DNA from: Treponema sp.
Lineage (GTDB): Bacteria > Spirochaetota > Spirochaetia > Treponematales > Treponemataceae
DNA: 64,000 nucleotides
Direction of reading: 5' to 3'
Assembly (NCBI GenBank): GCA_017551705.1
Contig: JAFZLA010000095.1
Span: forward strand, 2,629 to 66,628
A program made the position numbers and the translations under genes. Every line of letters starts with the position of its first letter. The stretch's first letter is position 1. The notes under the pieces were generated by a model that made no database searches, had not been told where the DNA came from, and saw only the letters and a list, made by a program, of their open reading frames with translations. Below, one piece after another: positions 5,930 through 63,094 of the stretch.

Positions 5930-6051
5930 GCAAGCCGCGCTTGCGCGAAATCCGCCCGAACAAACCATTGTGGTTTGTTTAGCAATAAAACGAGCGGCCA
6001 AGTTCTAGACATAAACGTCAAATTCTTATATAATAGAAATTCGAGGAATTT

Positions 6052-6900
6052 ATGAAAGTCACAAAAGTTCAAGGGAAGCTTGAGCTTACAAACGCAGGCG
6101 GCCTTTCGTTGTTTTTTGTAGGAATTGGAAGCGCCTTTTCAAAATTGAATTTTCAAAACAACGTCCTTTTCATAAAGGGCAAAAACCATGTCCTGGTTGA
6201 TTGCGGAACTTTGTGCTCTTTTGCCATTTCTCACTACGGCGTGAAAATTTCGGACATAGACAATTTTTTTCTCACACATTCACACGCGGACCACATTGGC
6301 GGAATGGAAGAAGTCGCATTTACCGATTACTATGTCAAAAAGGCTCGCCCCACGTTGATCATCGACGACCAGTACAAAAAGATTTTGTGGAACGAATCCT
6401 TGCGCGGCGGCTTGGGCTACAGCAAGACTTTTGCCGGAAAGACCGCCGGCTTTGAAGACTTTTTTATCCAGCAAAAGCCAAAAAAAGTGAAATGCGGAAA
6501 GCATGTTTACGAGCATGCGGTTGTCGGCGGAAAGGGCGGCATCGACCTAAAATTTTTTAGGACCAACCATTCCACCGCAAAAAGCGTCGCAGGAAAGTCG
6601 TTCATTTCAAAGGGCGTGATTGTAGACAACAAAATTCTTTTTACAAGCGACACCCGCTTTAACCAAAAGCAGATTGAACAAATATTGGCCGACTTTGACA
6701 TCGAATGGATTTTCCACGACGTTTGCAATTTTAAGAACGAAGTTCATACAAGCTACGAGGAGCTTAACACGCTTCCCGCCGACATCAAGAAAAAGATTTA
6801 CTTGTGCCATTACGACGAAGGCTTGATGAAAAAGAAGCCAAAGCAGGACGGCTTTGCCGGCTTTGCAAAGCGCGGCTGCTACTACAATTTTGATTTGTAA
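6052..6900 (+). CDS. MBL-fold metallo-hydrolase
   Basis: THSHADHIGG motif; 282 aa; GAGGAA lies upstream of the ATG. Confidence 0.7.
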   Translation: MKVTKVQGKLELTNAGGLSLFFVGIGSAFSKLNFQNNVLFIKGKNHVLVDCGTLCSFAISHYGVKISDIDNFFLTHSHADHIGGMEEVAFTDYYVKKARPTLIIDDQYKKILWNESLRGGLGYSKTFAGKTAGFEDFFIQQKPKKVKCGKHVYEHAVVGGKGGIDLKFFRTNHSTAKSVAGKSFISKGVIVDNKILFTSDTRFNQKQIEQILADFDIEWIFHDVCNFKNEVHTSYEELNTLPADIKKKIYLCHYDEGLMKKKPKQDGFAGFAKRGCYYNFDL

Positions 6901-6986: not shown

Positions 6987-8774
6987 TTAGTCAAAAAGAG
7001 CCTGCGCGGCGCGGGAGTAGCCGGATTGCGTGTAGTTGTAGAGCGCGGTCCAGGCAAAGCCGTCTTTTTGCGAAAAGATTTCTTTGTCGTAGGGAAGGTT
7101 CATGCTTACGCCGATTGTGTTTTTTGCGCGGCCGGCTTTTTTGATTTCCTTTGCAATGGCGGCGGGGTAGGCGGCTTGCCAAAGCCTTTTGTCCTTGACG
7201 GCGTTTCCTGTAAGATGTGTGAAGACCAAAATAAGGCCCGCGCCTTTTATCTTGGCTATGTCTGAGGCCGTCGCCGATTTTTTTTCTTCATAGCAAACAA
7301 AGTCTACGTTTGTGATTCCGCGCGCGGCAAAACTTTTTTGCAATAGTTCCGCCTTTTCTTGGAAGGGAACAAAGGCCGCGATTTTTTTTGAGCGGGCCTT
7401 TATCGGAAGGCTTACGTTTTGCGCCGAGGCGCGGGCCGCTTGGATTTGAATGTTGGCGCAAGTTTGCGCGGCTTCTTGCTTTTGTTCCTTGCTCATCGGA
7501 GCGACTTTTTGCGCAAGCGAAATTATTTTTTTGCCCTGGATTTGAATTAGGCCCGCTTTTTTCTTTAGTTCCAAAACGCGCAGAGCCGCCGCGTCCAAGG
7601 CCTTTTTGTCCAGCGTTCCGTTTTGCAAGTCTTGTTCAACCTTGGCAAAAAAGTCTTCCAAAAATTCCAAGTCTTTTTTTGAATAGACGTTGATTGGGTT
7701 TATTATCAAGTCGCAGCCCGCGTTTACCGCAAGGACAAAGCTTTGGTCGGGCGTCCAGTTGTCGTAAATGGCCCTCATGTCCATCGCGTCGGTGATTACC
7801 GCGCCCTTGTAGCCCAACGAGCCTCGCAAAATTTTTGTAAGAATTTTTTTGGACAGCGTTGCGGGCGCGACGATTTTTTTTGCGCTCTTTCCGCTCTGGA
7901 TTTTTGTCTTGTCCAAGCGGGGGCACTGTATGTGCGCGGTCATTATGAGCGGGATGTCGTTTTTTATGTTGGCTTTAAAGGGAACGGCTTCTCGCGACTT
8001 CCATTTTTGCAAGGAAGAGTAAATGACCGGCAAATCCAAGTGGGAGTCTACCGAAGTGTCGCCGTGGCCAGGAAAGTGCTTGGCGCAAGGCAAAACGCCC
8101 GCGGCCATAAGGCCTTGGCTAAAGGCTTCCGAAAATTCCGCCGCGGCTTTTGGATCGCCCGAAAAGCTTCTTATTCCTATGACCGGGTTTTGCGGGTTGG
8201 AGGCCACGTCGCAGTCGGGAGCCAGGTCGACATTGATTCCGTAGTCAAGCAAAAGCTGGCCGTTGGCCCTTCCGCACAAATACGCGTTTTGCGGCTCTTG
8301 CGTCTTTGCGATGGCCATAGCGCTTGGCGTTGAATAGTCGTATACGCGTGCCACGTTTCCGCCCTCTTGGTCGGCAAAAAAAAGCAGGGGCAAATTGCCT
8401 CCGTCAAGCGCAGCGGAATTTAGGTCGCGTATGAACTTTTTGGCAAGAGCTGCGTCCGTCATGTTCTCGCCGAACAAGATGACCGAGCCTATGTTGTAGT
8501 CGCGGATTGTTTTATAAATGGTGGAATTTATTGTGTTTTGCGGCGTAAAAAGTTTTGGGTTTTCGGCGGCGAGGGCGGGCTTGTAGTTTTGGTGGCCCAT
8601 CGGCGAGTCCGTCCAAAAGCGAAAGTTCATCACGCAAAGCGCTCCGATCTTTTGCCGCGTTGTCATCGATTGGACATATTCGTGGAGGGCCGCTTTTTCT
8701 TGAGCCGCCTTGTCCTGGGCGAACGCCGATGCGAAGATTGTGATGGCCACAATTGCCGCGAACAGTTTTTTCAT
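6987..8774 (-). CDS. Secreted glycoside hydrolase family 3 (beta-N-acetylhexosaminidase/NagZ-like) with a C-terminal extension
   Basis: KHFPGHGDTSVDSHLDLP is the GH3 signature. The start is taken at MKKLFAAIVAITIFASAFAQ (signal peptide, ATG 8774). Confidence 0.8.
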   Translation of the reverse strand: MKKLFAAIVAITIFASAFAQDKAAQEKAALHEYVQSMTTRQKIGALCVMNFRFWTDSPMGHQNYKPALAAENPKLFTPQNTINSTIYKTIRDYNIGSVILFGENMTDAALAKKFIRDLNSAALDGGNLPLLFFADQEGGNVARVYDYSTPSAMAIAKTQEPQNAYLCGRANGQLLLDYGINVDLAPDCDVASNPQNPVIGIRSFSGDPKAAAEFSEAFSQGLMAAGVLPCAKHFPGHGDTSVDSHLDLPVIYSSLQKWKSREAVPFKANIKNDIPLIMTAHIQCPRLDKTKIQSGKSAKKIVAPATLSKKILTKILRGSLGYKGAVITDAMDMRAIYDNWTPDQSFVLAVNAGCDLIINPINVYSKKDLEFLEDFFAKVEQDLQNGTLDKKALDAAALRVLELKKKAGLIQIQGKKIISLAQKVAPMSKEQKQEAAQTCANIQIQAARASAQNVSLPIKARSKKIAAFVPFQEKAELLQKSFAARGITNVDFVCYEEKKSATASDIAKIKGAGLILVFTHLTGNAVKDKRLWQAAYPAAIAKEIKKAGRAKNTIGVSMNLPYDKEIFSQKDGFAWTALYNYTQSGYSRAAQALFD

Positions 8775-8778
8775 CGCG

Positions 8779-9540
8779 CTAAAATCCAATCGTTCCTGTG
8801 TAAACTGGAATTTCGGTCTCGGCCTTTTTGACGGCTTCTTCCAAACTAAGGCCGTGAAAAAGCGGAGCGGCGAAATTTCTTCCGGACTTTTTGTCGTCGA
8901 CAAAGGCGCCCACGACCACTCCGGGCAAAGAGCTTTCCGGCGAGTTGGGAGCGTTCTTTCCGCCCAAGTCAGTCCTGCACCAGCCGGGGTCTGTGATGTT
9001 GACGCAAACGTCCGTGCCGTTGACTTTTTGCGCGATGTCCATTGTCACCTTGTCGAGCGCCGCTTTGCTTGCGCTGTAGCCCGCTTGTTCAGGCTCAAGT
9101 CGGATTCCGCTTGTTGTGTTGACGATGCGGCCAAATCCGCGCGCTTGCATTTTGGGAAGAAAGTGGTAGAGAATCATCATGGGCGCGATTGTGTTGATTT
9201 TAAAGCTTTCTTGGTAATCGCTTGCGGGCGTTTTTAGCCAGTCCGTTCTGTAGGCGACTTGAATGCCGGCGTTGTTCAAAACTATGTCGATGTCCACGCC
9301 AAGCGCGTCGATTTTGGCAAGCATTGACTCAACTTGCGCTGGGTCCGAAAATTCTGCGCCAACCGCAAATGCCTTGACGCCAAGCGCCTGCGCTTCCGCC
9401 AAAACTTTGTCGCAATGCGCGGCTGTCCGTCCCTGCACGACAAGATTGCAGCCTTTTTTTGCCAAAAAAATCGCCGCTCCATAGCCGATTCCCCGCGCCG
9501 CCCCAGTAACAAGCGCCCATTTTCCTTTTACGTCAACCAT
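8779..9540 (-). CDS. SDR-family oxidoreductase
   Basis: ALVTGAARGIGYG (TGxxxGxG), NNAG and YSASK motifs are present. The start is at MVDVKGK, preceded by GGAGGA. The stop lies 4 nt from the GH3 start, so the two genes probably form an operon. Confidence 0.85.
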   Translation of the reverse strand: MVDVKGKWALVTGAARGIGYGAAIFLAKKGCNLVVQGRTAAHCDKVLAEAQALGVKAFAVGAEFSDPAQVESMLAKIDALGVDIDIVLNNAGIQVAYRTDWLKTPASDYQESFKINTIAPMMILYHFLPKMQARGFGRIVNTTSGIRLEPEQAGYSASKAALDKVTMDIAQKVNGTDVCVNITDPGWCRTDLGGKNAPNSPESSLPGVVVGAFVDDKKSGRNFAAPLFHGLSLEEAVKKAETEIPVYTGTIGF

Positions 9541-9668
9541 GCGATCCTCCGTCCGCGCCCTAAAATTATAAATCAATAATGGAAAAAAATCAATTTAGGG
9601 CCGGCGAGGATGGTCAAGTTGAAGTGAAATAACCCCTTAATCCTTAAAATTTGCATTTTAATTAATAT

Positions 9669-9710
9669 TTTTTGTCATATCTTGACAAAAATGTCGAATT
9701 ATATTATCTT
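9669..9710 (+). promoter_or_regulatory. Putative promoter with an overlapping 9-bp inverted repeat (operator-like), upstream of the ATPase gene
   Basis: The inverted repeat is TTTTTGTCA (9669-9677), TATCT, TGACAAAAA (9683-9691). TTGACA lies at 9682-9687, followed by a 17-nt spacer and TATCTT at 9705-9710. The SD GAGGTGA sits directly before ATG 9727. Confidence 0.4.
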
Positions 9711-9726
9711 TTATGTAGAGGTGACT

Positions 9727-10896
9727 ATGCTTTTAGGTTTTGGCGGCAGGAATTGCTGGTGTTTTAAGGATTGGATGCAAATAGACTTGTCTCTTGGCGA
9801 GGGAGTTCCTTCTGATGTTTCCATGGGGCTTCCTGCCTGCACTGCTATGTGTTTTAAGGGCGCCAACGCTTCCGGCAAGACAAATGCGCTCAAGGTTTAT
9901 TCTTTCATTTATGATTTTGTAACTTTTAGTTTTTCAGACAGAGCTGATAAATCCATCATGTTTGCCTCTTTTTTTCATAATGAAGAACCCGCCGAGTTTT
10001 ACGCTGAGTTTATAGAGAATGAAGTTTACTATCGTTATGAATTGACTGTGTCAAAAAAATCGGTTATTGAAGAACGCCTTTTTAGAAAGAAAAATGAGGA
10101 AGGCTCCCGCGAAACAGAAATTTTTGTTCGAGAAGGAAATTCAATCACAAAAAACACTCTTTACAAAGGACACAAAGACATTCTTTTTAGAGACAACGCT
10201 TCCTTTATCAGCACATTAAAACAATACAATCTTCCAGAAATAGCGGACATTTATGACTTCTTTTTTAAGACCTCTATTAATGTAACTTACTATGGACTTA
10301 ATGAACGCGGTGAAAATGACCCGCAAGTGCTTACGAATTATTATTATACGCATCCCGAAGATTTAAAATTCACAATAGAAAAGATTAAGTTTTTTGACAC
10401 TGGAATCAAAGACATTGAAATCAGGACAAAAGTTAACGAAATTGGACAGTTGAACGCTTATCCGATTTTCCATCATTTGCTTTCCACAAAAAAAACTCAT
10501 GAAATGGCATTTGCAGAGGAGTCTCGGGGAACGCAAGCGCTATACTGCAAACTTGAGAATTATTATGCGGTTTTATCTACGGGCGGTGTTCTTGTACTTG
10601 ATGAGTTTGACATCAATTTGCATCCTGACATTCTTCCGCATCTCTTGGATTTGTTCATAAAGGCTGAAAACAATCCAAAGCGCGCTCAAATTCTCTTTAC
10701 AACGCATAATGTTGATATAATGGATATTCTTGGCCGTTATCGTACATATCTTTTTGAAAAAGAAGACGGAGAAAGTTTTTGTTATAGATTGGATGAGCCT
10801 AAATCTGCAAGTCTTCGCAATGACAGGCCTATTTCTGTTCCGTACAAGAAACACTTGATTGGAGGATTTCCTAAAATTGGCTCCAAAGAAGATTAA
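9727..10896 (+). CDS. ABC-like AAA ATPase (COG1106 / AAA_21-type, abortive-infection-associated class)
   Basis: The N-terminus MLLGFGGRNCWCFKDW matches the usual MLxxFxxxNFxSFKD pattern. Walker A is GANASGKTN, the signature-like motif is ESRGTQAL, Walker B is VLVLDEFDINLHP, and the H-loop is FTTHN. The C-terminus is YKKHLIGGFPKIG. Confidence 0.75.
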   Translation: MLLGFGGRNCWCFKDWMQIDLSLGEGVPSDVSMGLPACTAMCFKGANASGKTNALKVYSFIYDFVTFSFSDRADKSIMFASFFHNEEPAEFYAEFIENEVYYRYELTVSKKSVIEERLFRKKNEEGSRETEIFVREGNSITKNTLYKGHKDILFRDNASFISTLKQYNLPEIADIYDFFFKTSINVTYYGLNERGENDPQVLTNYYYTHPEDLKFTIEKIKFFDTGIKDIEIRTKVNEIGQLNAYPIFHHLLSTKKTHEMAFAEESRGTQALYCKLENYYAVLSTGGVLVLDEFDINLHPDILPHLLDLFIKAENNPKRAQILFTTHNVDIMDILGRYRTYLFEKEDGESFCYRLDEPKSASLRNDRPISVPYKKHLIGGFPKIGSKED

Positions 10897-11362
10897 TCCA
10901 AGAAAGGAAAAATTTCTCTCCAATCTTCCTCAGCACGATTTAATTTCTGATATTTCCGACGCAAAAGGAAAATTGTCATTCAGCTTTAAATATTTTGACG
11001 CAAGCCAATCTGTTGGACAGGATTTTAAGGATTGGAACGACAAGCAAAAGCAGGAATTGTTAGAAAAGCTTAGAGATTATTCACGCGAGAGCAAGCTTTA
11101 TTGGCTAAAACAGCGTATTGGCGGCGGTGGATTGAACGTGCTTGAGATTTATAGCGATTTTCCAAGGAATTCTGATTTTTTCTATCCTCGCCATGTTCCT
11201 GATGGGGTAAAATGGGCTAGATTCAGGATGGAAAGCGCGATGAGGCTTGTTGGCTTCTTTGTTTCGGAAGATTCCGCAAAAATGCTGCAGCTTTCTACAG
11301 ATGTTTTCTATGTGGTGTTTTTAGATAAGAATCATCGTTTTTACAAGACTGAAAAAAAATAG
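10859..11362 (+). CDS. Uncharacterised ~160-aa partner protein of the ATPase (no family recognised)
   Basis: The ORF overlaps the ATPase 3' end. There is no ATG near its 5' end, so the likely start is a TTG at 10859 or 10877; the latter is preceded by GGAGGA at 10861-10866. The C-terminal pattern WARFRMESAMRLVGFF...VFYVVFLDKNHRFYK only loosely resembles the RelE/ParE-type strand pattern. Confidence 0.55.
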   Translation: MEDFLKLAPKKINPRKEKFLSNLPQHDLISDISDAKGKLSFSFKYFDASQSVGQDFKDWNDKQKQELLEKLRDYSRESKLYWLKQRIGGGGLNVLEIYSDFPRNSDFFYPRHVPDGVKWARFRMESAMRLVGFFVSEDSAKMLQLSTDVFYVVFLDKNHRFYKTEKK

Positions 11363-11366
11363 GAAC

Positions 11367-11397
11367 TTGAACTTGTTCCATTTTGGAACAAGTTCAA
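11367..11397. terminator. 13-bp perfect hairpin downstream of the ATPase/partner pair
   Basis: TTGAACTTGTTCC-ATTTT-GGAACAAGTTCAA. There is no clear U tract on the plus strand, while an A8 run precedes it, so the T tract is on the minus strand. Confidence 0.45.
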
Positions 11398-11470
11398 AAT
11401 ACGGACAGAGCGCATTTATTTTTTTCAGTTGCCGGGTTTTTCTCGAAAGTTCCAACCCTTCGACTTTCCC

Positions 11471-30377: not shown

Positions 30378-31247
30378 ATGAAAAAACTCATTCTTATCGC
30401 GGCGCTTATGGCGGCCGTTTTGAGCTTGGCCGCAGCCAAAAAAGCAAAGCAAATTGACCCCTACGACGACCAAAAAATGCATCCAACTGACCGCACCGGC
30501 TTGGACAAGTGGCTTGGCACAAACCGCTACGACGTTCTTGACGAAGTGGGCATGTATATCCGCCCTGTAGTTGGAAAAATAAAGGCAAAAAAAGGCAACT
30601 TTATCTACCGCCGCGGCACGGATGTGGCTGGCTTCCGCATCTACTACGACACAAGCGCCTACACGGTTGAGATGGCAAAAGAGACCAGACAAACTTGTTG
30701 TGACGCTATCGACAAATACATGGACGACTTTGCCAACAAGCGCTTGGACAGAAAGAGCAAATTGGAAAAGACAAGGCGCGCCTACGGTTCCGCCCCTGGC
30801 TATCAGGAATACGGCATAGCGATCAAGATGATGAACTACAAGGCAAAGCCGACATTTTACTTTGGATACGCCTTTGTTAACGGCAGCCCCTACTTTGTGA
30901 TTCACGCCGCCAAGGCCAAGAACCTTGCTTTGGAGGGAGGGCACGCCGATTCCCAGAACACAGAGACGCTTCCTCAAAACTACTTCTTTACCCGCGCCCA
31001 AGCGCAAAAGCTTAAGGAATATATTTGCGAGGAGAACATAAGCCTCTTCCACGACGCTGAAGAAGAAAAGAATGGCGAGCTTAAGAGCGACGCTGTTAAT
31101 GACGAATATAACGAGGCTGACGGCGTTGTTCCCGAAAAAAAGAAAAAGGCCAAAAAGGTAAAAAATGCTGCCCCCGAAGGCGACGCTTATGACGACGCTC
31201 CCGCCGAAGAGGACATTACGCCAATTAATACGGTCAACGAGCGCTAA
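30378..31247 (+). CDS. Secreted protein, family B, copy 2
   Basis: Signal peptide MKKLILIAALMAAVLSLAAA. It is a paralog of 16307-17179 and 33708-34580. The tail is KKKKAKKVKNAAPEGDAYDDAPAEEDITPINTVNER. Confidence 0.75.
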   Translation: MKKLILIAALMAAVLSLAAAKKAKQIDPYDDQKMHPTDRTGLDKWLGTNRYDVLDEVGMYIRPVVGKIKAKKGNFIYRRGTDVAGFRIYYDTSAYTVEMAKETRQTCCDAIDKYMDDFANKRLDRKSKLEKTRRAYGSAPGYQEYGIAIKMMNYKAKPTFYFGYAFVNGSPYFVIHAAKAKNLALEGGHADSQNTETLPQNYFFTRAQAQKLKEYICEENISLFHDAEEEKNGELKSDAVNDEYNEADGVVPEKKKKAKKVKNAAPEGDAYDDAPAEEDITPINTVNER

Positions 31248-31298
31248 CGCGCTTAGATTAAATTTGAATTTTTTTTGGAAATATAAAGGAGGTTCCAA

Positions 31299-31766
31299 AT
31301 GAAAAAATTATTTACAGTTTTTGCAGTAGCCGCTGTTATGGCTGCCGGCGCTTTTGCCCAGGACGTAACCGGAGGCGTTGACGCCGTTACAGGCGCCGCC
31401 GCTACTGTAGGCGAAGTTGCCAATGTAAGCGAGACTTTGCAGGGCGTTTGGTTTGATCAAAAGTATAACTGCAACTGGCAGTTCCAGGTCAACAGCGGCA
31501 GCGAAGCTTTCTGTGTCCTTAAGGACGCCAGCAGCGGAGCCGTTATTTACACGTTCACTCGCGCCAAGGTAAAGAACTTTAAGGGTGAGATGGAAGCCAA
31601 CAAGTTCGTTTTGTCATGGGAATGCCCGGCCAAGAACCGCATCTACAAGTTCGTAAAAGAATTTGCCGGAAACAGCGACTTGCTCTTGGACATCTATAAC
31701 GACTACTACAAAGAGCGCCACTCAACAAGAATTACTTTTGTTAACGCTGACGCCCGCGTTGAGTAA
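31299..31766 (+). CDS. Small secreted protein, family A, copy 2
   Basis: Nearly identical to 33189-33656, differing by roughly a dozen substitutions over 155 aa. AGGAGG lies upstream. Confidence 0.78.
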   Translation: MKKLFTVFAVAAVMAAGAFAQDVTGGVDAVTGAAATVGEVANVSETLQGVWFDQKYNCNWQFQVNSGSEAFCVLKDASSGAVIYTFTRAKVKNFKGEMEANKFVLSWECPAKNRIYKFVKEFAGNSDLLLDIYNDYYKERHSTRITFVNADARVE

Positions 31767-31807
31767 GATCCACTTTTTGAAAAAAAAGTGACTTTGTCAC
31801 AGGATCC

Positions 31808-31836
31808 GCCCCGCGATTTTCGCGGGGCATTTTTTA
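31808..31836 (+). terminator. Intrinsic terminator after family A copy 2
   Basis: GCCCCGCG-ATTTT-CGCGGGGC followed by ATTTTTT. Confidence 0.7.
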
Positions 31837-31872
31837 TAGAAAAAAAATTTAAAGCGTGATAGAATAATTCCT

Positions 31873-32409
31873 ATGAAAAAGAAGGCGACATTTTTTGCTC
31901 TGCTAACATTGCTCTTGTTGAACGGAATTTGCGCCCAAGAATTTGTTAAAGTCACCGTTGACCAAAAGACAAGGCAAGCGCAAATAATCGACAAAGAAAT
32001 TGACGGCAAAAAAATGCGCGGAATTCTTGTTTACGCGCATAACGCTTGGCGCAATATTTTTTTTGACCAAAACGAGTTGCCGCAAATCAAGCAGGCGGCC
32101 GAAAAATATTTTTTGGATTTTGACGCGCTCAAATTAAAAAAAGGCAAAAAAGACACCATAAAAAAATACGGCTCAACCCCTCTTTTTATTGAATGGGGAA
32201 GCGACAAAAATTCAATCGACAGATTTTCGGACACGAGGGCTGATTTGGGCTATGTTTTTGTAAAGCAAGCCCCGTATTTTGCAATCACAATCCATTCCGC
32301 CCAAAACAAAAATCCAGATTGCGCTCAGCTGGCCTACAAAGATTCACCAAAACTGTTTCTGTTGTTCACCCGCTCCCAACTTAACGATTTGCTGGCAAAG
32401 ATTTTTTAA
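31873..32409 (+). CDS. Secreted 178-aa protein, a divergent and truncated relative of family B
   Basis: It has signal peptide MKKKATFFALLTLLLLNGICAQ. It shares GYVFV..APYF.I..H.A.N and FTRSQ...L with the family B core and lacks the charged tail. Confidence 0.6.
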   Translation: MKKKATFFALLTLLLLNGICAQEFVKVTVDQKTRQAQIIDKEIDGKKMRGILVYAHNAWRNIFFDQNELPQIKQAAEKYFLDFDALKLKKGKKDTIKKYGSTPLFIEWGSDKNSIDRFSDTRADLGYVFVKQAPYFAITIHSAQNKNPDCAQLAYKDSPKLFLLFTRSQLNDLLAKIF

Positions 32410-32935
32410 CTTTTTCTTTTTTTAGCAATGTGTATCTAGGCTGACCAAAAGAATAATCAATGGATCTTTTAGGAAAAAAAGTTCTGCACATTTGATTTTT
32501 TAAATTATTTTCTTCCCTGCTTCCAAGAAATAAATATACAGGGTTCTCGTTATATACTCCTTCGAGCAAAAAATCGGCCTTTATCTGGGAATAGACACGA
32601 ACATTTTCGTTATACTTGAATATAAGTTGATCGCTGTCCAAAAGCTCTTCAAGATGGCAAAGCGGTTCAAGCCTGTCCGACATTTTTTCATAAAACAGGC
32701 TTTTTTCAATCATTGTTTGACTGATTTTTCCTTCAATGATTTTATCAAAAAGACATTCCCTTGTACCTCGGAGAACTTGTCTTATATCCGTCAATTTGTG
32801 CAGACCCGCTATATGATGGAAATCCATTTTTTGAAATGTTAAGGAAAATTCTCTAACAACACCTTTTCGGGCTATTGTAAAGTTATAGACCACATCAAGA
32901 AGTTTTAAATAACTTTGAGCGCATTTTAAAATCAA
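32381..32935 (-). CDS. PBECR4-like predicted nuclease (Barnase-EndoU-ColicinE5/D-RelE fold family), 184 aa
   Basis: MDFHHIAGLHKLTDI, VYSQIKADFLLE and CRTFFP match my recollection of PBECR4-domain proteins (DFHHLxGL ... YSxIxAD ... FFP). The start is TTG at 32935 with GGAGA 10 nt upstream. The gene looks AT-rich by eye. Confidence 0.5.
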   Translation of the reverse strand: MILKCAQSYLKLLDVVYNFTIARKGVVREFSLTFQKMDFHHIAGLHKLTDIRQVLRGTRECLFDKIIEGKISQTMIEKSLFYEKMSDRLEPLCHLEELLDSDQLIFKYNENVRVYSQIKADFLLEGVYNENPVYLFLGSREENNLKNQMCRTFFPKRSIDYSFGQPRYTLLKKEKVKKSLPANR

Positions 32936-32952
32936 TTGTAAGCGTCTCCAAC

Positions 32953-32982
32953 AAAAAAACCCGCCTTAATAAAAAGGCGGGC
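32953..32982 (-). terminator. Intrinsic terminator immediately upstream of the PBECR4-like ORF
   Basis: The minus strand reads CCCGCCUU-UUUAUU-AAGGCGGG followed by U7. The terminator ends about 4 nt before the ORF's SD. Confidence 0.75.
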
Positions 32983-33126
32983 TTAAATTGAGCATTTTCT
33001 TTCGGCTTGCGCCTAGCTGGGTCGGGGTACCGCTGCACAACCCCTCCGGAAGGCTCAATAAGAAACTGCATCCCAGCGCAACTTCTTACTTCATCGCCTT
33101 AACAGACACACACGTTGCCTGTCGAT
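32953..33126 (-). ncRNA. Unclassified ~175-nt structured RNA or 5' leader
   Basis: It is bounded by a near-consensus promoter and the terminator. Internal helices seen by eye are UUGCG-CUGGG pairing with CCCAG-(CUAGG)-CGCAA, the hairpin GGGGU...ACCCC, and an alternative pairing of CUUAUUGAGC with GCUCAAUUUAAG that reaches into the terminator 5' flank. Confidence 0.45.
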
Positions 33127-33132
33127 ACTTAT

Positions 33133-33161
33133 AATATACAACAAATCCTTACGGTTGTCAA
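33133..33161 (-). promoter_or_regulatory. Near-consensus sigma70 promoter driving the structured RNA and PBECR4-like gene
   Basis: The minus strand has TTGACA (33161-33156), a 17-nt spacer and TATATT (33138-33133). It lies about 30 nt downstream of the family A copy 3 stop. Confidence 0.6.
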
Positions 33162-33188
33162 GGTATAAAACAAGTCATCCCAAAAAAC

Positions 33189-33656
33189 TTACTCAACGCT
33201 GGCGTCAGCGTTAACTAAAGTAATTCTTGTTGAGTGGCGCTCTTGGTAGTAGTCGTTGAAGATGTCCAAGAGCAAGTCGCTGTTTCCGGCAAATTCTTTT
33301 ACAAACTTGTAAATGCGGTTCTTGGCCGGGCATTCCCAAGACAAAACGAACTTGTTGGCTTCCATCTCGCCCTTAAAGTTCTTTACCTTGGCGCGTGTGA
33401 ACGTGTAAACCACCGCTCCGCTGCTGGCGTCCTTAAGAACGCAGAAGGCGTCAGAGCTGCTGTTAACCTGAAACTGCCAGTTGCAGTTGTACTTCTTGTC
33501 AAACCAAACGCCCTGCAAGGTCTCACTAACATTGGCAACTTCGCCTACAGTAGCGGCGGCGCCTGTAACGGCGTCAACGCCTCCAGTTACGTCCTGGGCA
33601 AAAACGCCGGCAGCCATAACGGCAGCTACTGCAAAAACTGTAAATAATTTTTTCAT
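33189..33656 (-). CDS. Small secreted protein, family A, copy 3
   Basis: Near-identical to copy 2. Confidence 0.78.
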   Translation of the reverse strand: MKKLFTVFAVAAVMAAGVFAQDVTGGVDAVTGAAATVGEVANVSETLQGVWFDKKYNCNWQFQVNSSSDAFCVLKDASSGAVVYTFTRAKVKNFKGEMEANKFVLSWECPAKNRIYKFVKEFAGNSDLLLDIFNDYYQERHSTRITLVNADASVE

Positions 33657-33707
33657 TTGGAACCTCCTTTATATTTCCAAAAAAAATTCTAATTTAATCT
33701 AAGCGCG

Positions 33708-34580
33708 TTAGCGCTCGTTGACCGTATTAATTGGCGTAATGTCCTCTTCTGCGGGAGCGTCGTCATAAGCGTCGCCTTCGGGGTCAGCCTTTTTTGCCTT
33801 TTTGGCCTTTTTCTTTTTTTCAGGGATCGTGCTGTCCGCTTCTGTGTATTCATCGTTCTCAGCGTCAGCTCTAAGACCGCCAAGTTTCTTCTCCTCTTCG
33901 TCATGAAACAGGCTTATGTTCTCTTCGCAGATAAATTCCTTAAGCCTTTGAGCCTGAGCTCGGGTAAAAAAATAATTTTGCGGAATGGTTTCCATGTTCG
34001 GAGTTTCCGCGACATGTTTTCCCTCTAGTGTCAAGTTTTTTGCCTTGGCTGAATGAATTACAAAATAAGGGCTTCCGTCCACAAAGGCGTAGCCAAAGTA
34101 AAATGTCGGCTTGGCCTTATAGTTCATCATGCTAATAGCAACTCCAAATTCTTGGTAACCTGGAGCAGAGCCGTAGACACGGCGTGATTTCTCAAGCTTG
34201 GCCTTGCGGTCAAGGCGCTTGTTTGCAAAGTCGTCCATATACCTGTCTATAGCATCGCAGCAGATTTGCCTAGTCTCTTTTGCCATCTCAACAGTATATG
34301 CCGTTGTGTCATAGTAAACGCGGTAGCCAGCCACATCCGTGCCGCGGCGGTAGATGAAATTACCGCGCTTTGCCTTAATCTTGCCAACAAGGGGCTTAAT
34401 ATATATTCCCGCCTCGTCAAGAACTTCATAGCGGTTGGTTCCCAAAAATTTTTCAAGGCCGCTGCGGTCAGTGGGATGCATTTTTTTGTCGTCATAGGGG
34501 TCAATTTGCTTTGCTTTTTTGGCTGTAGCCAAGCTCAAAACGGCAGCCATAAGCGCCGCAAAAAGAATGAGTTTTTTCAT
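33708..34580 (-). CDS. Secreted protein, family B, copy 3
   Basis: The start is at MKKLILFAALMAAVLSLATA (ATG 34580). The C-terminal 20 aa are identical to copy 2. Confidence 0.75.
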   Translation of the reverse strand: MKKLILFAALMAAVLSLATAKKAKQIDPYDDKKMHPTDRSGLEKFLGTNRYEVLDEAGIYIKPLVGKIKAKRGNFIYRRGTDVAGYRVYYDTTAYTVEMAKETRQICCDAIDRYMDDFANKRLDRKAKLEKSRRVYGSAPGYQEFGVAISMMNYKAKPTFYFGYAFVDGSPYFVIHSAKAKNLTLEGKHVAETPNMETIPQNYFFTRAQAQRLKEFICEENISLFHDEEEKKLGGLRADAENDEYTEADSTIPEKKKKAKKAKKADPEGDAYDDAPAEEDITPINTVNER

Positions 34581-34760
34581 ATAAAACACTCCTGTAAAAC
34601 TGTATTTTTAAATTAAACAATTGTTTTTAACTAAAGTTACTAAATGTCCGTCAAGAAAACTCTTGACAAGAAAAAAAAGCCGTCCGCCGCAAGGCAGACA
34701 GCTTTTAGCCTGTGGCTTTAAGCCAACCGATTGCAGGGACAAGCCCTGCAAAAAGTCAGA

Positions 34761-58411: not shown

Positions 58412-59382
58412 TTATGCTTGCGCGGGGGCGGGCTGGACGGCGAGGGCTTCCAGCACTTTGTCAAGCGGGGCTTTCATTTTTTGTGCAGCAGTTTCTGGCG
58501 TTGCATTGAATTCCTTAACAAGAACTATCGCGGCTTCCACGGCTTTTTGTTGCGCGCCTTCCTCGTAGCCTTCGCGACGGCGGTGGCGGTCGTAGGCCTC
58601 TTGGTCAAATTCTGACATACTGAACATAATTATCTTCCCCTTTTCCCTCTTGAAAAAGCCGTCCAGGTAATTGTTGTCAATCGCAAAGTCAACGGCTTGG
58701 GTCACGGCGCCCAGCAGGCTCATCCCCGCGGCCAGGTTGTCCCTGATTTTGGCGACATAACTTGAGTAATGATACAACGATTCGCACTTTTTGTGAAGAG
58801 CCTCGTTGCTGCCTTTGTTGATGTTCAGCATTGTGGCGGTCCACTCAAATTCGCCAGCCCCGTCCTTGTCCGGCTTTATGAAAGCGTCCGACAGGCGGAA
58901 CTTTGTCACGTCGGGCATGCTCTTTTCGCCGTTGTATAAGACCAAAAACTTTGGCGTTGGAATTTTCACCAACGATCTTCCAAAAATGTCAACATCCGTT
59001 TCGTTAAGGTAGGCCATATACAACTGGCTAAAGTAGAACAAGCCTCGCAGGGGCATGTTGGGGTTGAACGTGCTCTGCTGCTCGTAAAGATTGATTTGGC
59101 TGTCAATTAAAAAAGAAACGTCGTTCTTCATTGTGATAAAGAGAAAGTTTTCGATTGTGTTCAGCTCCAGCGCGTCGGGGTCTTTGTAGTCCGTTCCGTT
59201 CAGCGCGTTGTAAAGCTCCAGCCGCCAGCGCTTGCTTTCCTCCGAGTCTCGACCATAGATACGTCGGGCAAGCCCTCCGTTTTGCTTAAGGAACTTTATT
59301 CAACTGCGCTCTTGCGAGCGCTGGCAATTACCTTGAACAATCTGTCCTTGTAATCCCTTGGGGGGTTAGGTTCTAATTCCAT
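58412..59382 (-). pseudogene. Rpn/YhgA-like nuclease gene, copy 3, reading frame interrupted
   Basis: The ATG at 59382 (AGGAGGA upstream) gives MELEPNPPRDYKDRLFKVI... and terminates at TAA 59298-59296. The rest of the protein (...YGRDSEESKRWRLELYNALNGTDYKDP...MKNDVSFLIDSQ...NPNMPLRG...AQQKAVEAA...) continues in another frame down to 58412. Confidence 0.65.
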
Positions 59383-59387
59383 AGAAT

Positions 59388-59565
59388 CCTCCTTGATAAA
59401 AAATTAAGGGAACCGCTTTCTTGCGATTCTCTGTATATAAGGTACACACGATGAGAGATTTTTTATAAAATTTTTCTAGCGTTTTTTTGCAAAATTGCGC
59501 TTTTGGGAGAATTTGGGCTATACGGGTGTTTTTATTTTGTTTTGGGGCTTTGAGCGCGAGGGGGC
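59388..59565. repeat. Direct repeat R2 (partner of R1)
   Basis: See R1. It ends exactly at the stop codon of the GNAT gene. Confidence 0.85.
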
Positions 59566-59566
59566 G

Positions 59567-60178
59567 CTAAAAAATCATATACAGCTGCGTCAGCTCTTTG
59601 TTGTTCTTGGAAAGAATTGTGTTTTCAAGGGGTTGGAATCCATTTTTAATGTAAAAATCTATAAGCCATTCTTCTTGGTCGCATTCAAGAAATACAGTTT
59701 TTCCGCTTGTGGAACGCAAGATGTCGCGGACTTTTTCCAGGGCCACATTCATCAATTCGTCACCACTGATGGAGCTTGATTCGTCGCTGAAATTTCTGCT
59801 GAATTGCGCTATGAGGATTGCTGGAAGTTTGTAAGATTTCGATTCTTTGTCAAAATAGCCGAACCGGCTTATCGCGTTTTGCTCCGTTTTTGACAGTGAG
59901 GCTTTCTTTAACGTAAGCATTTTTGTTGCGAGCGTGAAATAGCCCAAGAGGTCAAATTTTTTGTCAATATAGGAACTTACCAAATAAGTCGCGGCTGTGC
60001 TGAGTTTTGTGGCTTGAACAGACTTTTTCTTAAAAAAAAGCTCCACGTCTTCGTTCTTGGATTTAAAAGAGCTGGCAACGGATTCAAAGGAACGTTCCCC
60101 GCCGTCTGTCGTCAGAAAATCGAACAGGCGGATAATCTGACGGTTAGTTCCTTTTGTCGTTTCTGCTATTGATTCCAT
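59567..60178 (-). CDS. GNAT-fold acetyltransferase, TacT/AtaT-like toxin candidate
   Basis: The pattern FKSKNEDVELFFKKKSVQATKLSTAATYLV...LLGYFTLA...LPAILIAQFSRN...FYIKNGFQPL fits the TacT-like GNAT layout (F.c.n..l..FL...A......TYV ... GyytL ... lgrLAv ... fY...GF). The segment looks AT-rich by eye. Confidence 0.5.
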   Translation of the reverse strand: MESIAETTKGTNRQIIRLFDFLTTDGGERSFESVASSFKSKNEDVELFFKKKSVQATKLSTAATYLVSSYIDKKFDLLGYFTLATKMLTLKKASLSKTEQNAISRFGYFDKESKSYKLPAILIAQFSRNFSDESSSISGDELMNVALEKVRDILRSTSGKTVFLECDQEEWLIDFYIKNGFQPLENTILSKNNKELTQLYMIF

Positions 60179-60335
60179 TTACGATTTCTTTGAGCTGATC
60201 TGGAGAAACAGTGGTGACATTTGCCGGGTTTGGAACGAACGGCCTTGAGAGCGAATCCGTGAACATTTTTACCAATTTGCTAGCTTCGCTTTTGGAACTA
60301 ATCACAAAAGACTTCTTCAAGCTGGATGTTGCCAT
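60144..60335 (-). CDS. Small 63-aa protein upstream of and overlapping the GNAT gene (putative antitoxin)
   Basis: It overlaps the GNAT start by 35 nt. AGGAGGAG lies 5 nt upstream of its ATG. The N-terminus KSFVISSKSEASKLVKMF is compatible with a strand-helix (RHH-like) start. No family was recognised. Confidence 0.4.
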   Translation of the reverse strand: MATSSLKKSFVISSKSEASKLVKMFTDSLSRPFVPNPANVTTVSPDQLKEIVNGINSRNDKRN

Positions 60336-60508
60336 AATGCTCCTCCTTGTATGATTTATGGCGATAGTATATTAGATGGGGTTAAAAAAATCAACAGATT
60401 TTTTTCCGTCCGTATATAAGATACACTTTTTTATCGAAAGTTTATAATTTTTTTGAAAAAAAATGAATAAATTTGCCTTTTTCCTAATTCCTTGTTATTT
60501 TAAAAGGT

Positions 60509-63094
<2,586 letters not shown>

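Follow-up and report, generated by a model that had tools for sequence, protein, structure and literature searches.

Within a stretch of 64,000 nucleotides (nt) from a gut or rumen Treponema sp. (assembly GCA_017551705.1, contig JAFZLA010000095.1, positions 2,629 to 66,628 of the forward strand; hereafter the window), the ORF list and a reading of the sequence place two co-oriented, overlapping open reading frames (ORFs) on the plus strand of the region 9600-11400. The first encodes an ABC-type ATPase and the second a 161-aa partner protein, which is best read as an RNase-type toxin. The upstream neighbour of the pair is a divergently oriented SDR (adh_short) gene and the downstream neighbour is fliG. 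The features of the locus are as follows.

9577-11460, no strand: low-GC inserted segment (approximate extent) between the SDR gene and the fliG promoter, GC 0.371 compared to 0.497 for the window
9669-9691, plus strand: operator-like palindrome TTTTTGTCA-TATCT-TGACAAAAA, the right arm of which contains the -35 hexamer
9682-9710, plus strand: putative sigma-70-type promoter TTGACA-17 nt-TATCTT (TTGACA at 9682, TATCTT at 9710; 10 of 12 matches)
9727-10896, plus strand: gene for the AbiLi-like ABC (AAA_21) ATPase, 389 aa, presumed neutraliser or sensor
9859-9882, plus strand: Walker A motif of the ATPase, GANASGKT, read from the sequence
10588-10611, plus strand: Walker B motif, VLVLDEFD, likewise
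10696-10710, plus strand: H-loop, FTTHN, likewise
10861-10866, plus strand: ribosome-binding site (RBS) GGAGGA of the partner gene, inside the 3' end of the ATPase gene
10877-11362, plus strand: partner gene, start TTG 10877, 161 aa, predicted BECR-fold (RelE/YafQ-like) RNase-type toxin
11150-11164, plus strand: conserved partner motif YSDFP
11213-11227, plus strand: conserved partner motif WARFR
11243-11257, plus strand: conserved partner motif RLVGF
11306-11344, plus strand: conserved partner motif FYVVFLDKNHRFY
11367-11397, no strand: perfect 14-bp hairpin with a loop of 3, located 3' of the partner gene, at the right-hand insert junction or close to it

The ATPase gene most likely starts at ATG 9727, which is preceded by GAGGTG at 9718-9723, and not at TTG 9682; the resulting start and length of 389 aa match the gene calls on four near-identical sister contigs. 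No ATG occurs in the partner gene before residue ~120, so its start must be a TTG, either 10877 or the alternative at 10859, giving an overlap with the ATPase gene of 20 nt or 38 nt, respectively. The length of 161 aa is the one given to homologues of the partner by most gene callers, and the 20-nt overlap is also kept in related Treponema loci. The position of the RBS inside the end of the ATPase gene suggests that translation of the pair is coupled. An original prediction, made from the sequence alone, had placed two genes here with an overlap of 20-38 nt and a TTG start for the second, and the ORFs agree with it.

The AT-rich island that was also predicted is evident in the composition of the pair, as the GC of 9727-11362 is 0.378 compared to 0.497 for the window and 0.519 and 0.515 for the flanking genes. 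This is the lowest stretch of its size in the 64 kb, ranking fourth lowest of 624 same-size sliding windows (mean, 0.496; sd, 0.036), all of the lower windows overlapping the pair itself. The low-GC segment contains the two genes and no third.

The predicted promoter and operator-like palindrome are both present upstream of the ATPase gene. A simple promoter scan was not enriched over shuffles (7 found, 5.3 expected), and the evidence comes from comparison of loci: in all 15 related loci compared, the core TTGTCA-N5-TGACAA keeps a constant spacing to the ATPase ATG, and these loci have an equivalent -35/-10 arrangement and unrelated DNA further upstream. Judged by sequence comparison, the conservation of palindrome and promoter is far beyond chance, and its persistence despite the unrelated upstream DNA indicates that the promoter and operator travel with the genes. 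The placement of the palindrome over the -35 hexamer resembles the autoregulation of classical type II toxin-antitoxin (TA) systems, making it a candidate autoregulation site. The strong 3' hairpin of the original prediction exists, as a 14-bp stem, but its proposed role as the end of the module is weakly supported. It is preceded by A8 and lacks a T-run on the plus strand, such that a terminator score is obtained for the minus strand only, and it is neither conserved in other loci bearing the pair nor present in the empty sites described below. A conserved module terminator was ruled out on the missing conservation and on the T-run lying on the minus-strand side, and the hairpin may instead mark the insertion junction.

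In the closest available relatives, three metagenome contigs (L100, L103, and L097), GH3 and fliG are adjacent, 145, 234, and 469 bp apart, and the contigs hold no ATPase, no partner, and no SDR gene. These relatives are 81-84% identical to the window for FliG, ~72% for the M16 peptidase, and ~75% for GH3, and only the ~50 nt proximal to fliG are common to the window and the empty sites. The SDR gene (8779-9540), treated as a fixed flank in the original prediction, is thus absent there too; it has a host-like GC (~0.52) and may represent an older insertion or a lineage-specific loss. In a fourth contig (L098, 1973-4551), the same slot is filled by three unrelated minus-strand genes for proteins with signal peptides (155, 283, and 382 aa), and the GH3-fliG junction therefore behaves as a variable slot. 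The genes in the L098 slot belong to the same paralogous families as genes at 30.4-34.6 kb of the window and genes downstream of the M16 peptidase gene. Other species of Treponema carry pairs 66-82% identical to that of the window at entirely different places. By this synteny, the pair is an acquired, mobile cassette and not part of the flagellar or glycoside-hydrolase neighbourhood, in keeping with the apparent acquisition that had been proposed.

The two genes are a unit of inheritance. An ATPase homologue occurs directly upstream of a partner homologue in 88 of 89 loci (phmmer E <= 5.5e-29), the single exception (L006) having a Panacea gene in the ATPase position; two further loci (L071 and L078) are exceptions in appearance only and carry truncated remnants of the same ATPase. 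Identities to the window proteins track each other (means of 48.6% and 49.4% for the two genes, 75 loci), and in terms of sequence the ATPase and partner diverge in step. The co-occurrence on which the original prediction turned is borne out by these loci, as is its general architecture of an ATPase with a small effector.

The ATPase matches AAA_21 in Pfam (3.2e-32), with AAA_15 as the only other Pfam match, and phrog_5836 in PHROGs (2.6e-62). Among the PADLOC models, AbiLi (3.5e-58) precedes AriA (2.6e-29), followed by much weaker matches to HEC-01A, PtuA (5e-8 and worse), and MAD3. No PDB sequence was matched at E <= 0.01, solved AriA chains included, NsnB was not among the best 25 PADLOC matches, and DUF3696 was not found by Pfam. 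On these profile matches the protein is a soluble ABC ATPase of the AbiLi/RloA class, and the AAA_21 assignment and motifs quoted in the original prediction are upheld.

The partner had been described as lacking HNH, Toprim/DUF4435, helicase, and RloB signatures, and searches of Pfam, NCBIfam, and PADLOC were indeed negative for these; likewise, 34 relatives of the partner gave no match in Pfam, NCBIfam, or PADLOC, with none to RloB, Toprim, or DUF4435 in Pfam or PADLOC at E <= 1. PHROGs returned only phrog_8366 (1.4e-5), the function of which is not assigned, and a PDB sequence-profile search with the partner family returned nothing meaningful. Homologues of the partner form 119 clusters at 90% identity, all annotated as ‘hypothetical’ and none with a Pfam domain. 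The superfamily has D150 and H153 (window numbering), near the C-terminus, as its only invariant polar residues, and R123 is nearly invariant. The N-terminal ~30 residues of the window protein are basic (MAPKKINPRKEK) and are modelled with low confidence by AlphaFold2 (AF2).

Two forms of the family can be distinguished. The window partner is a long form, with an N-terminal extension, an insert of ~17 residues before the last strand, and a C-terminal tail ending ...YKTEKK, compared to ...KKHT in the short forms, to which it is ~30% identical. In the strand WAxx(H/R), many short forms have His where the window partner has Arg117 (WAxIH compared to WARFR). The most remote homologue (P0119, 32% identity) and gp24 of Bacteroides phage BI-TP1 are both encoded directly downstream of SocA/Panacea genes (Pfam, 1.3e-21 and 3.5e-20), that of the phage being gp23, and share with the relatives on plasmids the invariant core Y-x-x-F-P ... 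W ... G-(F/H) ... F-Y-V-V-F-L-D-K-x-H-x-F. With a profile of the short forms, an exhaustive HMMER search recovered 379 clusters at 50% identity, and alignment of the long form to the short forms with hhalign covered the entire core (probability 100%, E 4.8e-48). The PADLOC model for NsnC, the effector of the Menshen defence system, was matched by 18 of 53 short forms and by one member of the long-form alignment (best E 7.1e-8), the whole family core aligning to profile positions 180-280 of 284, in the C-terminal part. These alignments point to homology between the partner superfamily and the C-terminal PB-BECR1 RNase domain of NsnC, which for the window partner is transitive via the short forms. 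The effector, called new in the original prediction, would in this way connect indirectly to a known effector family. The catalytic residues of PB-BECR1 are an H-R-H triad, onto which D150, H153, R123, and position 117 may map residue by residue.

The family pairs with two unrelated neutralisers. On viral contigs the split is complete, the upstream gene being the ATPase for all seven long forms and Panacea for all 25 short forms. None of the long-form loci examined has Panacea in the antitoxin slot, which the ATPase occupies in each. As the pairing of one family with two unrelated neutralisers is a classic toxin signature, the small protein is taken to be the toxin. A total of 277 partner loci were confirmed by tblastn among ~185,000 species genomes, with a patchy distribution across the Spirochaetota, Fibrobacterota, Gamma-, Beta-, and Delta-proteobacteria, Campylobacterota, Cyanobacteria, Cloacimonadota, and Clostridia. 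The Panacea-linked short form (P0195/P0143 cluster; BI-TP1 gp24; L094, 3914-4351) abounds in Bacteroidales of the human gut and in the prophages of these bacteria, with one 90% cluster of 112 members and one member sequence found on at least 1000 contigs, and is annotated only as ‘hypothetical’. One protein (P0329, 163 aa) has an apparent Panacea-like N-terminal segment fused to a C-terminal toxin half (...FYVVFLDKDHEFWITEKKHT), which could be a natural antitoxin-toxin fusion or an artefact of frameshift or assembly.

The AF2 model of the 161-aa partner (predicted local distance difference test, 83.5; predicted TM score, 0.74) consists of a helix bundle and a 4-stranded antiparallel sheet, and not the three-layer alpha/beta arrangement of Toprim. 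With a model of the short form, ~35 of the 37 top PDB matches from Foldseek were YafQ, a Helicobacter pylori YafQ-like toxin, YoeB, HigB, RelK, and ParE (target TM 0.47-0.61, ~105 aligned columns). The hunch of a RelE/ParE-like C-terminus in the original prediction is supported by this list of folds and by the NsnC PB-BECR1 matches of the short forms. Members of the RelE/YoeB/YafQ/HigB group likewise have helices followed by an antiparallel sheet, and the invariant His and an aromatic residue of the present family are located near the C-terminus, as are those of YoeB and YafQ; in contrast, the present family is larger (140-170 aa compared to ~90), has an extra N-terminal strand and helices, shows no detectable sequence similarity to them, and has an ATPase in place of a small labile antitoxin as its neutraliser. 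The best reading of the partner is a predicted BECR (RelE/YafQ-like) RNase-type toxin, a long form of the superfamily that contains PB-BECR1 and very probably AarT (see below), with a presumed RNase chemistry.

The fold also bears on whether the pair is a degenerate member of AbiL/RloAB or PARIS, the Toprim/OLD-type partner of which has diverged beyond recognition. The best matches of the ATPase in the defence database are AbiLi and then AriA, and the pair is often located within type I restriction-modification (R-M) loci, as is RloAB. Yet at 161 aa the partner is too small, it lacks RloB, DUF4435, and Toprim matches, its topology is that of a helix bundle and antiparallel sheet, and its relatives match BECR toxins and not OLD nucleases, all of which makes such an origin exceedingly improbable.

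The closest published counterpart of the pair is AarT(D3):AAA(D29) of Acinetobacter guerrae, a validated TA pair in which the ATPase gene comes first, reported from the NetFlax network (Ernits et al. 2023, PMC10440598). According to the available text of that study, AarT (‘AAA-associated RNase-like toxin’) is small, without an HHpred match, and has an mRNA-interferase-like predicted fold; it is toxic, inhibits 35S-methionine incorporation, and is neutralised by its cognate AAA ATPase. The NetFlax network was seeded from Panacea, with D3 linking Panacea to the AAA hub (PMC10440598), and this dual pairing of D3 is the dual pairing found here. Termini derived from the primers are MAAKRQS... and ...PKKHT for AarT and MLVNFS... 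and ...IKGTD for its ATPase (PMC10440598). Among the short forms, P0289 starts with MAQKRQS, P0247 and P0324 end with ...SPKKHT, and a KKHT tail occurs in at least 35 of the 150 top representatives, and an ATPase encoded on an Acinetobacter baumannii plasmid starts with MLVNFS, as does AAA_D29. It is very likely that AarT belongs to the same superfamily. The pair in the window shares with AarT:AAA an AAA_21-type ATPase gene directly upstream of, and co-oriented with, a small toxin gene, as well as a toxin that lacks Pfam or HHpred annotation, has an mRNA-interferase-like predicted fold, and belongs to a family that also pairs with Panacea. It differs in that the window toxin is a long form (extension, insert, ...YKTEKK tail, and Arg for His), AarT being compared by its termini only; the ATPases of short-form pairs are 430-460 aa and 23-24% identical to the 389-aa window ATPase. 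The pair is thus best placed among the NetFlax AarT:AAA systems, where it forms a separate clade of long forms with a conserved operator, and is of a known but barely characterised kind. The system had been proposed as undescribed, and here the original prediction gives way, as a pair of an ATPase and a small RNase-like toxin had already been published. The literature search found no later paper taking up AarT, and no link between AarT and PB-BECR1 appears in the available text of PMC10440598 or PMC12065111.

The results for A. guerrae also address the possibility that the roles are different or reversed, with the ATPase as the effector or toxin and the small protein as its antitoxin, its adaptor, or a regulator that binds the palindrome. 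Pfam names AAA_21 a ‘putative AbiEii toxin’, the operator is conserved while neither protein has an obvious DNA-binding domain, such that one of them must regulate unrecognised, and the N-terminus of the partner is basic and of low model confidence. Reversed roles are nonetheless very improbable: in A. guerrae the small protein was toxic and the ATPase neutralised it, the small-protein family occupies the toxin position downstream of Panacea in one phage, one metagenome contig, and 25 viral contigs, and the core of this family shows homology to a domain predicted to be an RNase effector and a structural likeness to YafQ and YoeB.

Several defence systems share parts of this architecture. In Menshen (Millman 2022; Li et al. 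2025, PMC12065111, available text), the ABC ATPase NsnB is predicted to hold NsnC, an effector with a PB-BECR1 RNase domain at its C-terminus. The window pair resembles it in encoding an ABC ATPase beside a presumed effector with a transitively homologous BECR RNase domain, but has two genes and not three. Membership of Menshen was ruled out, as there is no gene for NsnA (the ParB-DUF262 sensor), the window ATPase lacks DUF3696, and the 161-aa toxin has no room for the N-terminal inactive-PIN domain of NsnC. AbiL/RloAB is similar in the class of its ATPase, the closest PADLOC match being AbiLi, in its two-gene operon, and in its frequency inside type I R-M loci; it differs in that AbiLii/RloB is a Toprim/OLD-type nuclease, and the window pair, with a BECR-type partner and no RloB signal, was excluded from it for lack of such a second gene. 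PARIS likewise uses an ABC ATPase that sequesters a toxic nuclease, with phage-triggered release and an RNA-targeting abortive outcome. Its AriB is, however, a DUF4435/Toprim tRNA nuclease, and this assignment was rejected as the AriA match is secondary to AbiLi and the partner has no AriB match. Septu (PtuA with the HNH nuclease PtuB) was discarded on the weak PtuA matches and the absence of an HNH or PtuB match in the partner. Finally, the type II TA systems neutralised by PanA (Panacea) are approached by the short-form branch, which lies directly downstream of Panacea genes in phages and Bacteroidales, whereas the antitoxin slot of the window holds an ATPase.

Across genomes the pair occurs in several kinds of mobile or defence-related context. 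In one locus (L003) hsdS and hsdR of a type I R-M operon flank it, and in five Treponema or Spirochaetia loci (L014, L015, L016, L017, and L024; ~8484-10094 in each) hsdM (Pfam N6_Mtase, 1.5e-63) begins 1-4 nt after the toxin stop, which suggests that the toxin pair is co-transcribed with the R-M genes in those five genomes. In Vibrio the pair adjoins a Zot/secretin filamentous prophage, on a conjugative Shewanella plasmid it is located between integrases and an Ec67-family retron, and long-form pairs are also found on seven viral contigs. Relatives 28% identical to the partner follow ‘ATP-binding proteins’ on 4.9-5.6 kb plasmids of Klebsiella, Enterobacter, Escherichia coli, and Acinetobacter, where the ATPase-toxin pairs are almost the sole cargo. 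Among 132 nearest-neighbour genes, the commonest were type I methylases (n = 5) and specificity subunits (n = 5), alongside further AAA_21 ATPases (n = 5), integrases (n = 3), HEPN (n = 2), and ResIII/helicase domains (n = 2-3), with the rest heterogeneous.

Such contexts can be read in terms of pure addiction, in which the pair would keep genomic islands and mobile elements stable through post-segregational killing, the ATPase serving as a plain proteinaceous antitoxin with no role against phages. The relatives that form almost the only non-replication cargo of the small plasmids (ColRNAI and Rep plasmids of Klebsiella, Enterobacter, and Acinetobacter) fit this explanation, as do the palindromic operator over the -35, which is like that of type II TA loci, the ordinary genes that make up most of the chromosomal neighbours, and the failure of AarT:AAA to protect against BASEL phages. 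On the other hand, an ABC ATPase of ~390 aa is expensive as an antitoxin if nothing is sensed, and the homologous AriA, PtuA, and NsnB have sensing or transducing roles in proven defence systems, one of which (Menshen) has the toxin domain as its effector domain. The pair also recurs within type I R-M operons and adjoins a retron, and in the negative phage test the host was heterologous and the phages were non-cognate. Overall, addiction as the sole function appears unlikely.

Taken together, the pair is probably a self-contained mobile TA-like module in which the AbiLi-like ATPase gates a BECR RNase toxin, a trigger leading to translation arrest. Under this model, both genes would be co-transcribed from the promoter embedded in the conserved palindrome, with autoregulation, and their translation would be coupled through the 20-nt overlap. 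Oligomers of the ATPase would bind the toxin and hold it inactive, by analogy with AriA-AriB, PtuA-PtuB, and the predicted NsnB-NsnC. A trigger, either a phage product or loss of the module, would cause an ATP-dependent conformational change that frees or activates the toxin, which would then cleave mRNA or tRNA and stop translation, with growth arrest or abortive infection as the outcome, or post-segregational killing where the module is lost. For the A. guerrae pair, a distant relative, others have established that the small protein is toxic, that the ATPase neutralises it, and that translation is inhibited, and these properties would extend to the window pair by analogy; the RNase chemistry of the toxin, its sequestration by the ATPase, the kind of trigger, and an anti-phage role are put forward as presumed parts of the model, with phage defence by the pair being plausible.

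A more specific and more tentative possibility is that the long-form pair is an abortive-infection system of two genes that has yet to be named, related to Menshen in a minimal, ‘NsnBC-like’ form; the ATPase itself would sense a phage cue and release the RNase, which would shut down translation. Were this the case, fusion into type I R-M operons would provide a functional back-up to restriction, as with PrrC and RloC; a widespread branch with BECR effectors (277 species genomes with the long form and 379 short-form clusters) would join the ATPase-nuclease defence families; and AarT, PB-BECR1, and the Panacea-linked phage toxins would be unified as one effector superfamily.

A number of observations weigh against the reading of the pair as an ATPase-gated BECR toxin related to AarT. 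With respect to the toxin, the window partner has no match in Pfam, NCBIfam, or PADLOC even at E <= 1 and does not itself match NsnC, Foldseek with the long-form model found nothing significant (best E 1.3 in PDB and 0.8 in BFVD), and no single match of the short-form model was significant (best E 0.09). As the window partner has no significant sequence or fold match of its own, its BECR assignment is transitive through the short forms, and with Arg in place of His its catalytic set may differ from theirs. With respect to AarT, its placement in the superfamily draws on seven N-terminal and five C-terminal residues together with context, AarT (WP_152878172.1) was not found in the >=90% clusters of Acinetobacter plasmid proteins, and the A. 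baumannii plasmid ATPase has a C-terminus unlike that of AAA_D29. With respect to function, the available text of PMC10440598 reports no convincing AlphaFold interface between ATPase and toxin and, in the only phage test of a relative, no protection of E. coli by AarT:AAA against BASEL phages; only ~10 of the 132 nearest neighbours are R-M genes, most being ordinary.

Elsewhere in the window, a second low-GC patch (30378-34589; GC 0.39-0.42 around 31.1-33.7 kb) corresponds to an inverted duplication of genes for signal-peptide (lipoprotein-like) proteins, in which genes of 289 aa and 155 aa on the plus strand face near-identical genes of 155 aa and 293 aa on the minus strand. Between the duplicated genes are two low-GC ORFs, one of 178 aa (31873-32409, plus strand) and one of 184 aa (32381-32935, minus strand) with an ‘FHHIAGLHKL’ motif. 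The sliding-window scan also shows a third stretch, of mildly low GC (~58900-60600, about 0.41). Two genes upstream of the island, at ~5990-6840 of the window (located via sister contig L007, 3439-4287), a 282-aa gene of the metallo-beta-lactamase (MBL) fold has precomputed Pfam matches to Anti-Pycsar_Apyc1 (PF23023) and Lactamase_B, and probably encodes an ordinary MBL hydrolase, not an anti-defence protein.

The pair belongs to a large and phylogenetically scattered family that lies outside Pfam, NCBIfam, and PADLOC, such that standard annotation describes it as an ‘AAA family ATPase’ and a ‘hypothetical protein’. Within it, a distinct long-form branch is defined that is strictly coupled to an AbiLi-like ATPase, and three separate published observations, AarT of NetFlax, the PB-BECR1 domain of Menshen NsnC, and the Panacea-linked phage toxins, are joined. 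The proposed ATPase-gated BECR RNase offers a testable mechanism, with D150, H153, R117, and R123 as candidate catalytic residues, and type I R-M operons, tiny plasmids, and prophages provide natural contexts in which to search for the trigger. For Treponema, the island would be annotated as an acquired cassette of the TA or abortive-infection type.

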